37,393 nt of DNA from a virus. The translations under genes and the position numbers were made by a program. The notes under the pieces are model-generated. The model did no database searches, was not told where the DNA came from, and saw nothing but the letters and a program-made list of their open reading frames with translations. The stretch lies in UHGV virus genome UHGV-0149281. One strand, 5' to 3'. Shown one piece after another: positions 32,998-37,343 of this stretch (position 1 is its first letter; each line of letters begins with the position of its first letter).

Positions 32998-33321
32998 TTA
33001 ATCATCCATGGATGGATTGAGCTTATCTCGTGTTGATGTGGCGATTTGTCCTACATTCCTAAGCCAAGATTTCAAATCCTTGATATTGTCATTGATTTCA
33101 TGAATATCTTCTTTTTTTAGTCTGTTAATATTATTCTCAATAATTTCAATGGATTGCTCAATATCAGATATAGTGAATGATAGTTTGTTCTTCTCATCTT
33201 TTATTGAGTTTTTAAGTGCTTCGTTCTCAGTCTTGAGGTCAGATATCTTTTGTTTTAAAGATGCCAGTTGGTACTGAACCACAATGAGTGCGATAGCTAT
33301 CACGATAACTGTTGTATACAC
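32998..33321 (-). CDS. small membrane-anchored coiled-coil protein (sieA-locus replacement)
   Basis: GTG start with strong AAGGAGG RBS; N-terminal TM (YTTVIVIAIALIVV) then a heptad coiled coil; very AT-rich. Confidence 0.65.
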   Translation of the reverse strand: MYTTVIVIAIALIVVQYQLASLKQKISDLKTENEALKNSIKDEKNKLSFTISDIEQSIEIIENNINRLKKEDIHEINDNIKDLKSWLRNVGQIATSTRDKLNPSMDD

Positions 33322-33439
33322 ACCAACCTCCTTAGTTTTGAGCAGGATACCATGAAAAAAGTAAACATCTTTTGCCTACTTCACATTTGAATGGTTTGTC
33401 ATTAGGATGTTTCCGGTTTTTTCAAATATGGAAATTGAT

Positions 33440-33859
33440 ATGAAGAGGATTATCGGCGTTGTTGCTGGCGCTATATTGTTATCTGGGTGCGCAACTATTG
33501 TTGGTGACGAAACACAGCTCGTGCAAGTGAACAGCAATCCTTCCGGTGCGAGCTTTAAAGTAAAAGACGAATCAGGCGTGATTGTTGCGCAAGGCAAGAC
33601 CCCGCAAGGAGTAACTCTTGCCAAGTCAGATGGTAGTTATTTTGGCAAAAAGAGCTACCAGATCACTATGGAAAAGGATGGGTACGAACCAGTTACCCTG
33701 CCAATCAAAGCCAATGCTAATGGTTGGTATATTGGTGGAAACCTTGTGTTTGGTGGGTTAATTGGTTGGCTTGCTGTAGATCCTTTTAATGGCGGGATGT
33801 ATACCTTGAAGCCAAAAGAGGCAAACGCATCTCTTATACCATCAACAAAGCAAGACTAA
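33440..33859 (+). CDS. lipoprotein of unknown function
   Basis: Signal peptide with lipobox LLSGC; Gly-rich C-terminal segment GGNLVFGGLIGWLAVDPFNGGMY; own terminator. Confidence 0.75.
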   Translation: MKRIIGVVAGAILLSGCATIVGDETQLVQVNSNPSGASFKVKDESGVIVAQGKTPQGVTLAKSDGSYFGKKSYQITMEKDGYEPVTLPIKANANGWYIGGNLVFGGLIGWLAVDPFNGGMYTLKPKEANASLIPSTKQD

Positions 33860-33867
33860 TAAATAGG

Positions 33868-33890
33868 ACCCACCTTCAGGTGGGTTTTTT
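33868..33890 (+). terminator. rho-independent terminator
   Basis: CCCACC-TTCA-GGTGGG followed by TTTTTT; overlaps the mnt 3' end. Confidence 0.7.
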
Positions 33891-34127
33891 GTACAAATCC
33901 TTCAGCGTATCAAACACCATCTTCTTAACAAGCTCTGACTGCTCATCAGCGAGTCGTTCTGCATCGTCGCGATATCCAGTCACAGGCGATGGTTTTGATA
34001 GAGCATCTTGGACGATTTGTAACAACTCGGAGTTCATTGATCTCCCATTCGCCTCCGCCCTGAATTTTAATTTCTCCCTTACTTCCATAGGCATACGGAA
34101 GTTAAAGTGCGGATCATCTCTAGCCAT
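33876..34127 (-). CDS. mnt: Mnt repressor (ribbon-helix-helix)
   Basis: MARDDPHFNFRMPMEVREKLKFRAEANGRSMNSELLQIVQDAL matches P22 Mnt. Confidence 0.95.
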   Translation of the reverse strand: MARDDPHFNFRMPMEVREKLKFRAEANGRSMNSELLQIVQDALSKPSPVTGYRDDAERLADEQSELVKKMVFDTLKDLYKKPT

Positions 34128-34218
34128 GCCATCACTCCAAGTTAGTGTATTGACATGATAGAAGCACTCTACTATATTCTCAATAGGTCCACGGTGGACC
34201 TATATTGTGAGGTGAATA
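34128..34218. promoter_or_regulatory. Omnt/Oarc operators with divergent Pmnt/Pant promoters
   Basis: Arc operator-like ATGATAGAAGCACTCTACTAT and Mnt operator palindrome AGGTCCACGGTGGACCT between mnt and arc. Confidence 0.8.
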
Positions 34219-34379
34219 TGAAAGGAATGAGCAAGATGCCGCAGTTCAATTTGCGGTGGCCTAAAGAAGTATTGGATTTGGTACGCAAGGTGGCGGAAGA
34301 GAATGGTCGGTCTGTTAACTCTGAGATTTATCAGAGAGTAATGGAAAGCTTTAAGAAGGAAGGGCGCATTGGCGCGTAA
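34219..34379 (+). CDS. arc: Arc repressor
   Basis: [53 protein letters not shown] matches the 53-aa P22 Arc. Confidence 0.95.
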
Positions 34380-34450
34380 AGTTGAAGCCCCAACTGCGGG
34401 AACAGTCAGGGCTTCGGTATCAACAAATCGGATTAGGAAATATTGACATG
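34380..34450 (-). ncRNA. sar: candidate sar antisense RNA (against the ant RBS)
   Basis: P22 makes a short antisense RNA across the arc-ant junction; the junction is conserved here; boundaries not determined. Confidence 0.35.
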
Positions 34451-35326
34451 AAAAGTATAGCAAAGGCACAAAACGATTTCACCATCTTCAAATTCGGCGA
34501 CAGTGAAATCCGCGTCATCAACAAATGCGGTGAGCCGTGGTTTGTAGCAAAAGATGTTTGTGATGCTTTAACCCTGACTAACTCACGCAAGGCGCTTACT
34601 GCACTTGATGACGATGAAAAGGGAGTAACTTTAAGTTACACCCTTGGTGGTGAGCAGAATCTAAGCATTGTTAGCGAATCAGGTATGTATACATTGGTTC
34701 TGCGCTGCCGCGATGCTGTCAATAAAGGTTCGGTCCCGCACAAATTCCGCAAGTGGGTAACAGCAGAAGTTCTGCCTTCAATTCGCAAACATGGCGAGTA
34801 TGTGAAAGGCAAGAAAACCACTGTTGAGGAAAGAACACCGCTACGCGATGCAGTAAACATGCTGGTAGGAAAGAAAGGACTTCGCTATGACGATGCATAC
34901 AGTATGGTTCATCAGCGTTTTGGTATTGACAGCATTGATGAACTTTCAATTGAACAAATCCCGCTGGCCGTAGAGTACATCCACAGGGTAGTGCTTGAAG
35001 GTGAATTCATCGGAAAACAAGAGAAGAAAACCAACGAGCTTTCTGCAAAAGAAGCAAACAGCCTTGTATGGCTCTGGGATTATGCTAACCGTTCACAGGC
35101 ATTATTCCGCGAACTGTATCCGGCATTAAAACAAATTCAATCGAACTATTCCGGCAGATGCTACGACTACGGTCATGAATTCTCGTATGTTATCGGAATG
35201 GCGAGAGACGTTTTAATCAATCACACACGAGATGTTGATATCAATGAGCCAGACGGACCAACGAATCTTTCCGCATGGATGAGACTTAAGAATAAAGAAT
35301 TGCCTCCTTCAGTACATAACTACTGA
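34448..35326 (+). CDS. ant: antirepressor Ant
   Basis: 292 aa; N-terminal KilA-N/Bro-N-like region; sequence parallels P22 Ant; follows arc. Confidence 0.9.
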
Positions 35327-35345
35327 CAGATAACCAACGCAACGA

Positions 35346-35368
35346 CCCAGCTTCGGCTGGGTTTTTTT
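35346..35368 (+). terminator. rho-independent terminator after ant
   Basis: CCCAGC-TTCG-GCTGGG followed by TTTTTTT. Confidence 0.75.
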
Positions 35369-35426
35369 ATGCCCAAAATTCACCGTAGCCATGCTGCGGC
35401 GATTCCTTGTATCTGGAGCAAATTAA

Positions 35427-37343
35427 ATGACAGACATTACAGCCAATGTTGTGGTAAGCATGCCTTCGCAACTCTTCACTATGGCTCGTTCTTTTAAAGC
35501 CGTTGCCAATGGCAAAATTTATATCGGTAAAATTGACACTGACCCGGTAAATCCTGAAAACCAGATTCAGGTTTATGTAGAGAATGAAGACGGCTCTCAC
35601 GTTCCTGTTTCGCAACCAATCATCATTAACGCTGCTGGTTACCCGGTATATAACGGACAGATTGCCAAGTTCGTAACTGTGCAGAATCATTCCATGACTG
35701 TGTATGATGCTTATGGTTCGCAGCAGTTCTATTTTCCGAATGTGTTGAAGTATGACCCTGATCAACTTTCTTCGCGCTTATCATCTGATGATGGTGCTTC
35801 TTATATTTCATTTAAGAAGCCTTATGCTGATGCTGCAACCAGAAAAGCATCTGACTACTTTAATCAGGAAATTAATGTAGATGACTTTGGTGCGTATGGC
35901 GATGCCTACTTATTGAACGGAGAAGATAACCCAAGCAAGCATGACGACACACACGCATTTCAGGCCGCTCTGATTGCTGCGTGGCGTGCAGGTGGTGTTA
36001 AAGTAGTAGCCACTCCGTGGAAAAGCTATTACATCGCTGGTAAAGTTTATGTGTTGGCTTCGGAATCCCTATCCGACATTGAAGCAACTAATTTCCCTAA
36101 GCGTCGGATGCAAGTGATAGATTTTCAGGGCGCTCGTATCGTTGGGCGGGACGACACTTCCGACACAACTAATGTGTTCATGGAAACAGGTTACATAAGT
36201 TCTACTGGCTCTATAGCTTCTGTATTTGGGAAATCTGGGGAAGAATACTTAGCCACAGGAACCACCATTCGTAACGCAACCTTGGTTAACTTCTATCAGG
36301 GGTTCCGTTTACGTGACCATGTATTTGGTTGTGAGGTTACAGATATTGTTGGAGTAAACGTCCAGCAGTTAGTTTACACTCAGCGATGTTTCTACTCACT
36401 GTTCCGTAACCTGCAATGTAACGGCACATATACTACCGGCCTGCATCGCTATCACTTCACTGATGAATGCAACATTCAACCTCTGGTTTCTGTCAACACA
36501 GGACAGTGTGATGTAGGTATTAAGTTTGAAGGTGCGGTTGAAGCTCTTACGCTGTTCAACTGCGGCATTGAAAGTTTTCGCACCCACGGCGTTTGGATTG
36601 CAGGAGCATACAACATCAAGTTCGATTCATGCTACATAGAGTCAAACGAAAGCAATGTATACGGTGTTATAGCTACGAGCGCAAATAACATTACGCTGGA
36701 TAACTGCTGGATTTACGGTAGCAGTATGAAAATGTTTGGTGCATTCGACGACAATACCAACGTAAGAATTATGCCTAATAACCGTATTGGAGGAGGGGCG
36801 GTTTGGTGGGATCTTAACGAAGGGTCGCCGTACAACCTTTCCGATATTCACTGGCAAACAGATATAAAGGCAGGTGGTGTAACACTTCCTGCGGCATCCG
36901 CTAAAGAAGCCAGCACGGTGGAACAGACGATAGTTTTCTACCATCCAGATTTTGGCTTGAGTTCAATCGTAGGAAAAGCAAAACAAACGAGTAAATACCA
37001 CCCGCAGCTTGTTAACGGCAAAATGAGTAACGGTAGCTCTGCTGCACATACAGTTGGCGCAAGTGTCTCTACAGAGGTTTCAGGTTCAGACACTAGAGCA
37101 AAATGGACAACGCAAATACAATACTCTGATACACAGCTTATTTTTTTAGCATTGAAGATAGATCATAACTTAGGGACATGGTTTTGGTTAGGTGTTGTGG
37201 CAGGAGATAAAGCGATGGTTATTTCAACATCTGATGAATCAAAGACTCCGGTTATAAGTAATGAAAATGGGTTTGTCGTAGTAGAGAGTCCGCTTCTTAT
37301 GACGCCAATAAATGTTCATGGTGGAGAAATAAGATTGCTATAG
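35427..37343 (+). CDS. tailspike: P22 gp9-like head-binding domain fused to a divergent beta-helix receptor-binding domain
   Basis: First ~115 aa ([11 protein letters not shown]...[34 protein letters not shown]...NVLKYDPDQ) match the P22 tailspike; the remainder diverges with beta-helix-like repeats; 3' end AT-rich. Confidence 0.85.

Follow-up and report, generated by a model that had tools for sequence, protein, structure and literature searches.

A P22-like prophage tailspike joins a conserved head-binding domain to a mobile receptor-binding module that may recognize the O:11/O75 O antigen

The window analyzed here, a 37,393-nucleotide stretch of viral DNA (UHGV-0149281), is a P22-like (Lederbergvirus-type) genome and an Escherichia coli prophage. 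At positions 35427 to 37343 on the plus strand lies a tailspike gene of 638 codons that runs from ATG to TAG, taken from the open reading frame (ORF) list, with its codons re-read in the window. The protein divides into four segments, all encoded on the plus strand. Residues 1 to 113 (35427 to 35765) are a P22-type head-binding, or virion attachment, domain (PF09008) that ends at the conserved NVLKYDPDQ junction, and residues 114 to 146 (35766 to 35864) are a neck or linker, delimited by segment identities, in which different N-terminal anchors are joined. Residues 147 to 470 (35865 to 36836) are the conserved core of the receptor-binding module, with a predicted cap helix (residues 175 to 187) and most of a predicted right-handed beta-helix, and residues 471 to 638 (36837 to 37340) are a separately exchangeable C-terminal segment with the last rungs of the helix (to about residue 520) and a predicted beta-sandwich (about 545 to 637). 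By its head-binding domain, its gene position, and its beta-helix fold, the protein is an ordinary, intact P22-like podophage tailspike. Taken as a whole, the gene probably encodes a functional, module-swapped tailspike directed at an O antigen.

The head-binding domain is unambiguous. Residues 1 to 113 match the full Pfam Head_binding profile (PF09008) with an E value of 1.2e-65 and 219 bits, against a threshold of 24 bits. The original prediction had aligned the first 115 or so residues with the head-binding domain of P22 gp9, and that alignment holds, with the refinement that the domain is nearer to Sf6 gp14 (92% identity) than to P22 gp9 (76% identity). Sf6 gp14 (PDB 7sg7 and 2vbk), an endorhamnosidase of 623 rather than 638 amino acids and of similar architecture, is also the best sequence match in the PDB (E value, 1.6e-65); past the head-binding domain its alignment weakens, taking in the neck and the first cap motif (DFG...D), and fades near residue 162. 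The P22 gp9 entries (PDB 2xc1 and 8tvr), likewise of an endorhamnosidase, align to residues 1 to 118 only, with an E value of about 1e-50, and P22 has in common with the window the position of the gene after mnt-arc-ant and a presumed virion role. At the nucleotide level, the first 341 nucleotides of the gene are about 94% identical in more than 1,000 E. coli genomes, and the match ends there. Moreover, the late region of the window is 94 to 97% identical to the E. coli phages HZ41, Dewey, Louie, IME10, and APC_JM3.2, and this likeness too stops within the tailspike gene. A minus-strand ORF of 132 amino acids (35367 to 35765) and the other ORFs internal to the gene were rejected as by-products of the tailspike frame, given the strong protein conservation in the plus-strand frame.

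The receptor part is of another kind. No characterized tailspike aligned with the protein over its full length in the PDB, in 50,697 phage records, or in fold searches. Searches with phmmer and with profiles aligned P22 gp9 to residues 1 to 118 only and found no homology to its residues 120 (approximately) to 666; as had been predicted, the protein is, at the level of sequence, unrelated to the P22 endorhamnosidase from about residue 116 onward. Homology to the Sf6 endorhamnosidase module was also not found, as the sequence alignment stops near residue 162. Although Sf6 gp14 gives the best template modeling (TM) score among the solved tailspikes (0.51), its receptor module is about 13% identical and has other conserved acidic residues. 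The tailspike of HK620 (gp9; PDB 2vji), an endo-N-acetylglucosaminidase from a phage whose O antigen is O18A1, matches residues 1 to 154 only by tblastn and differs in its beta-helix (9 to 11% identity; TM-score, 0.38). Nor is the module an endosialidase of the CUS-3/K1F type, since CUS-3 matches residues 1 to 193 only and the model is a beta-helix without a propeller. Judged by sequence, the receptor module is not of the P22, Sf6, HK620, or CUS-3 type.

What family the receptor module belongs to is not captured by the databases searched. PDB searches with the single tailspike sequence and with a profile built from its relatives gave no match beyond the head-binding and neck parts, and the receptor part matched no family in NCBIfam, reached Beta_helix (PF13229) below the Pfam threshold, and drew only weak "tail fiber" matches in PHROGs. 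The module is nonetheless not an orphan. An exhaustive search with residues 116 to 638 against 1.84 billion cluster representatives returned 143 relatives at an E value of 1e-3 or below, 12 of them at 1e-30 or below, with N-terminal extensions of widely varying length. An AlphaFold model built from 14 near-identical sequences had a predicted local distance difference test score (pLDDT) of 41 and was superseded by a monomer model from a 70-sequence alignment drawn from that search, with a pLDDT of 89.6 and a predicted TM-score of 0.83; residues 147 to 470 were mostly above 90. The model predicts the cap helix at residues 175 to 187, a right-handed beta-helix from about 192 to 520, and a C-terminal beta-sandwich from about 545 to 637, and thus a receptor domain of the expected beta-helix type followed by a C-terminal domain. 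Comparison with known tailspikes, which the original prediction had proposed as a check, gave HK620 and Sf6 as the nearest known folds, at 14% identity or less.

Conservation within the module points to candidate active-site residues. Every sequence in the 70-sequence alignment, which extends to relatives of 21% identity, has Y403, E405, and G531; E382 is conserved in 99%, N349 in 97%, and Y323 in 93% of the relatives, and D173 is nearly invariant. E382 (36570-36572) lies in the motif NCGIES, and Y403 (36633-36635) and E405 (36639-36641) lie in the motif FDSCYIES, so that the candidate rungs span 36570 to 36641 on the plus strand. The two glutamates are 23 residues apart, or about one helical rung. 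Beta-helix glycoside hydrolases, among them the tailspikes of P22, Sf6, and HK620, typically bear a pair of carboxylates on adjacent rungs, and here both are essentially invariant. We regard E382 and E405, together with Y403, as the best active-site candidates.

Base composition does not betray the exchange. The 3' end of the gene had been described as AT-rich, and the description is right for the last 100 or so codons: the final 300 nucleotides, which sit inside the segment of residues 471 to 638, have a GC content of 0.39 and a third-position GC content of 0.27, the 4th percentile of 300-nucleotide windows in a stretch of 47.6% GC. It does not extend to the rest of the receptor part, which is no more AT-rich than the head-binding part (0.445 to 0.451 in the sub-segments measured over residues 116 to 539, against 0.423). 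As GC content is steady at residue 116, composition does not mark the junction, and we rejected it as a marker of the swap.

The exchange is instead seen in the company that the module keeps. In other phage lineages, the receptor module (about residues 147 to 638) is joined to N-terminal anchors of three further kinds, unrelated to this one, and the module swap that had been proposed behind a conserved P22/Sf6-type head-binding domain is thereby borne out. First, proteins of 650 amino acids on Kagunavirus (K1ind/XY1-like) contigs of about 45 kb, whose tail genes are 93 to 99% identical in nucleotide sequence to K1ind1 and XY1, carry essentially the same cassette (P0111-P0120). Second, so does a 650-amino-acid spike with the anchor PF18668 (Tail_spike_N) on a contig about 86% identical to the Deseoctovirus phages C1 and DS8 (P0110). 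Both kinds differ from the window protein in their unrelated anchors and in belonging to siphophage tails, the window protein being part of a P22-type podophage tail. Third, only one substantial match came up among the 50,697 phage records. This protein, XXQ42883, annotated as "tail fiber protein" in Escherichia phage vB_EcoP_P64441 (Autographivirales, Slopekvirinae), belongs to the same receptor-module family with 68% identity over residues 142 to 638. It differs in being an uncharacterized protein of 520 amino acids from a lytic T7-like phage, in which an N terminus of about 23 residues replaces the head-binding domain. At 62 to 78% identity, the specificity of the P64441 fiber may differ from that of the window spike. 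We note that P64441 (L001:1-7494) encodes two receptor-binding proteins, an endo-N-acetylneuraminidase and the 520-amino-acid fiber, the latter placed after the lysis genes, which suggests a dual-receptor arrangement, perhaps capsule plus O antigen.

Identity to the window protein changes abruptly along these relatives. Over residues 1 to 113, it is 24% for the Kagunavirus spike, 22% for the Deseoctovirus-like spike, and 9% for the P64441 fiber, and over the linker (114 to 146), it is 27, 52, and 3%, respectively. Right after the linker, identity rises to 92% for the Kagunavirus spike and to 89% for the Deseoctovirus-like spike. Across the sub-segments of residues 147 to 544, it ranges from 90 to 95%, 89 to 99%, and 62 to 78% in the same order, and over residues 545 to 638, it is 81, 81, and 66%. 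Residues 147 to 470 are thus 89 to 99% identical across the P22-type, Kagunavirus, and Deseoctovirus-like proteins. On these sequence comparisons, the receptor module is a mobile cassette, joined just past the conserved KYDPDQ motif. A second breakpoint lies within the module. The P22-type variants P0107, P0108, and P0109 (the last of the Aberdeen type) are 93 to 98% identical to the window protein over residues 147 to 350, 69 to 88% over 351 to 470, and only 33 to 47% from 471 on; the last 170 or so residues swap separately.

The gene has also diverged by ordinary substitution and recombination. Compared with the intact allele of CP029212 (97% amino acid identity), 115 codons have changed silently and 17 with an amino acid change. 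Nucleotide divergence between the two is a patchwork, at 18% in codons 241 to 370 and 0.8% in codons 521 to 638. Together, the ratio and the patchwork indicate strong purifying selection on old, recombining tailspike alleles. A literature search found no paper mentioning CP029212.

The surroundings of the gene are those of a P22-like prophage. Upstream lie mnt (33876-34127, minus strand; Pfam Arc and Repressor_Mnt), arc (34218-34379, plus strand; Pfam Arc), and the antirepressor gene ant (34382-35326, plus strand; Pfam Bro-N and P22_AR_C), and this mnt-arc-ant order of the immI region upstream of the tailspike gene is the gene order of P22. Between ant and the tailspike gene is a terminator-like hairpin with a T-run, GACCCAGCTTCGGCTGGGTTTTTTTATGCC (35344 to 35373, plus strand), found in a pattern scan of an identical locus (L003, 9918-9937) and read in the window; it may serve as a terminator. 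The tailspike gene is the last gene before the attachment site. A protein identical to the tailspike (P0001; 100%) occurs on three public contigs, where the prophage ends beside ybhB-bioABFCD-uvrB, and the common core of the lambda attachment site, GCTTTTTTATACTAA, lies in the same prophage next to ybhB-bioA (L003:12339-12361), about 420 nucleotides past the tailspike stop codon. Thus, this P22-like prophage uses the lambda attachment site. The window itself ends 50 nucleotides past the tailspike stop codon, about 370 nucleotides short of the prophage end. None of the O-antigen-modifying genes gtr and oac adjoins the tailspike gene in the window or in the public contig with the identical protein.

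Two other features of such prophages drew our attention. Between the gene for the gp16-type ejection protein and mnt, roughly where P22 carries sieA, the window has a low-GC stretch (32998-33859; GC, 0.33 to 0.35 at 33000-33450) with ORFs for a 107-amino-acid coiled-coil protein (minus strand; phrog_5962) and a 150-amino-acid protein (plus strand; phrog_6823). Neither ORF matched a Pfam family, and PADLOC gave no credible family for them; moron or exclusion genes are one possibility. In E. coli assemblies with 97% identical copies of the tailspike (L014-L017), an 88-amino-acid ORF and then an insertion sequence, IS1, lie about 830 nucleotides downstream of the tailspike stop codon. Past IS1, the flanks vary by strain, with genes for an FRG-domain protein and a DEAD helicase, sit-like ATP-binding cassette (ABC) transporter genes, or the aerobactin gene iucA, and IS1-mediated rearrangements seem to have occurred at the prophage end in these strains. 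The same FRG/helicase flank is found in strain 2017.06.05CC, where the spike is reduced to its C-terminal 276 codons.

Which bacteria carry the spike gives an indication of its receptor. More than 100 protein clusters are 92 to 100% identical to it over the full length, come from E. coli and Salmonella enterica, in some cases from hundreds of contigs, and bear the NCBI name "phage tailspike protein." Public carriers of copies at least 90% identical include CP029212.1, GCA_034541595.1, GCA_034541615.1, GCA_035825675.1, GCA_974490445.1, the Salmonella assemblies of P0017, P0019, and P0057, and Logan SRA runs. One member (P0167) of the cluster P0069 is labeled "phage tailspike protein [Bifidobacterium longum]" beside the label of an E. 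coli metagenome-assembled genome, almost certainly a binning or contamination error in that genome. The hosts of P22 are Salmonella of serogroups O:4, O:9, and O:2, and the original prediction had held that the host range here is likely not that of P22. The Salmonella carriers named by serovar, seven entries in all, are Rubislaw, with the 97% type of spike, and Aberdeen and Veneziana, with a 75% type that has an alternative C terminus. Veneziana belongs to O:11 in the Kauffmann-White scheme. Rubislaw and Aberdeen are O:11 in published strain tables (PMC5015238, PMC8432352, PMC7432712), not O:4 or O:9, and the window is an E. coli prophage, which together support that prediction indirectly. Any portion of the receptor part was found in only 3 of 5,426 complete E. 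coli genomes: EC6, with an intact copy of 89% amino acid identity and an O60-type ABC transporter cluster disrupted by insertion sequences; HKUOPY1, with a decayed copy and an O75 cluster; and 2017.06.05CC, with a decayed copy and an O91 cluster.

The O75 cluster of HKUOPY1 links the two genera. A search of 5.8 billion proteins gave only seven relatives of its polymerase, Wzy. One of them is a Salmonella cluster of 517 members, 70% identical to this Wzy, in which Rubislaw and Aberdeen are the named members. The O-antigen clusters of O75 (HKUOPY1, L018:795-10966) and O:11 (Salmonella enterica, L021:5172-17687) are colinear, in the order rmlBDAC, a glycosyltransferase gene, wzy, two glycosyltransferase genes (GT4 and GT2), manC, manB, and wzx, followed by gnd. 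Five O-unit-specific genes encode proteins 56 to 67% identical between the two. Colinear clusters at such divergence are the pattern known for O antigens common to E. coli and Salmonella, and the colinearity and identities therefore imply that the O75 and O:11 O antigens are identical or near-identical. The literature searched held no description of an O75/O:11 pair and no structure or E. coli equivalent of Salmonella O11. Because O75 makes up 1.1% of complete E. coli genomes (60 genomes), one O75 genome among three carriers would be expected by chance about 3% of the time. Human clinical isolates, some labeled uropathogenic E. coli, account for many of these O75 genomes. An O antigen common to both genera would explain near-identical spikes in E. 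coli and Salmonella, and we put the chances that the spike targets the O:11/O75-type O antigen at about even.

Several points weigh against this assignment. EC6 has the intact 89% copy yet an O60-type, disrupted ABC transporter cluster, 2017.06.05CC has a decayed copy yet an O91 polymerase, and only 1 of the 60 complete O75 genomes has any trace of the receptor module. Moreover, the serotype link in E. coli covers the complete genomes, whereas many draft assemblies have 95 to 100% identical copies. As for enzymology, no solved relative exceeds 18% identity to the receptor module, so that cleavage and any bond specificity are conjectural; likewise, the pairing of E382 and E405 is predicted from sequence rather than from their proximity in the monomer model. 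The galF-gnd region of EC6 (L008:20745-40483) contains "O60 family" wzm/wzt with gmd/rmd, where IS1 truncates a glycosyltransferase gene, and in the nearby colanic acid region, IS5 splits a mannose-1-phosphate guanylyltransferase gene. A review of E. coli O antigens finds the published O60 structure at odds with the O60 galF-gnd locus. We rejected the O60-type cluster as an explanation of the E. coli carriers, as only 3 of 5,426 genomes have the cluster and the other two tailspike-bearing genomes lack it.

A functional tailspike might instead recognize another receptor, either a different O antigen or a surface glycan (capsule, colanic acid, or enterobacterial common antigen, for instance) that many E. 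coli and Salmonella strains have in common. The O clusters of the three complete E. coli carriers do all differ (O60-like, O75, and O91), 97% identical proteins occur in two genera, and P64441, whose host is capsulated uropathogenic E. coli, encodes its 68% relative next to an endosialidase. Against this, all seven serovar-named Salmonella entries fall within one rare serogroup, a restriction that a common glycan would not predict. Moreover, the O cluster of the sole O75 carrier in E. coli is precisely the one whose gene order matches O:11, and the copies in two of the three E. coli strains, being decayed, are poor guides to present specificity. We regard another receptor as possible, with a probability clearly below that of the O:11/O75 O antigen.

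The module might also bind or modify a polysaccharide without hydrolyzing its backbone, as a lyase, a deacetylase-type modifier, or a pure adhesin. The near-invariance of E382 and E405 on adjacent rungs speaks for a glycoside hydrolase, and the O75 and O:11 clusters encode rhamnose and mannose pathways with no in-cluster uronic acid pathway, which counts against a lyase if the O75/O:11 receptor is correct. A nonhydrolytic module thus appears improbable. That the prophage is defective and the gene a relic with no role in infection, as the decayed copies in HKUOPY1 and 2017.06.05CC and the end of the window 50 nucleotides after the gene might suggest, is very hard to reconcile with an intact ORF, a full P22-type virion gene set in the window that is 94 to 97% identical to plaque-forming phages (HZ41, Dewey, Louie, and IME10), a silent-to-replacement ratio of 115:17, and the same cassette in complete lytic phage contigs of about 45 kb.

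How a functional O-antigen tailspike of this design might work can be proposed from its relatives. The protein would serve a P22-like temperate podophage integrated at the lambda attachment site of E. coli. Like the spikes of P22 and Sf6, it would trimerize, and residues 1 to 113 would plug the trimer into the tail hub. The beta-helix and beta-sandwich of residues 147 (approximately) to 638 would bind O-antigen chains along a groove, and the beta-helix would most likely cleave them endolytically, following the paradigm of P22, Sf6, and HK620, with E382 and E405 as the predicted catalytic pair. Cleavage would bring the virion down to the outer membrane. More broadly, and with less than even confidence, we speculate that the module founds an uncharacterized family of O-antigen glycanases specific for O:11/O75 that moves ready-made among P22-like podophages, two siphophage genera, and a T7-like podophage and crosses the boundary between E. 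coli and Salmonella, and whose independently swappable last 170 or so residues tune specificity.

That phages swap receptor modules while keeping the head-binding domain is a textbook principle, and proteins of this type are abundant and already annotated. What is new, modestly, is an uncharacterized module common to four phage lineages and two host genera, with a specific receptor prediction. Tailspike receptor modules set phage host range, and they find use in serotype-specific diagnostics and in the enzymatic removal of O antigens. Among uropathogenic E. coli, O75 is a frequent serogroup, and if the receptor prediction is true, a specific O75 depolymerase or detection reagent would be of practical use. 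Likewise, if it is true, a glycan common to both species would let related prophages cross the boundary between E. coli and Salmonella by way of the same spike. Ultimately, the locus is a clean example of one receptor cassette carried across four phage lineages and two host genera.
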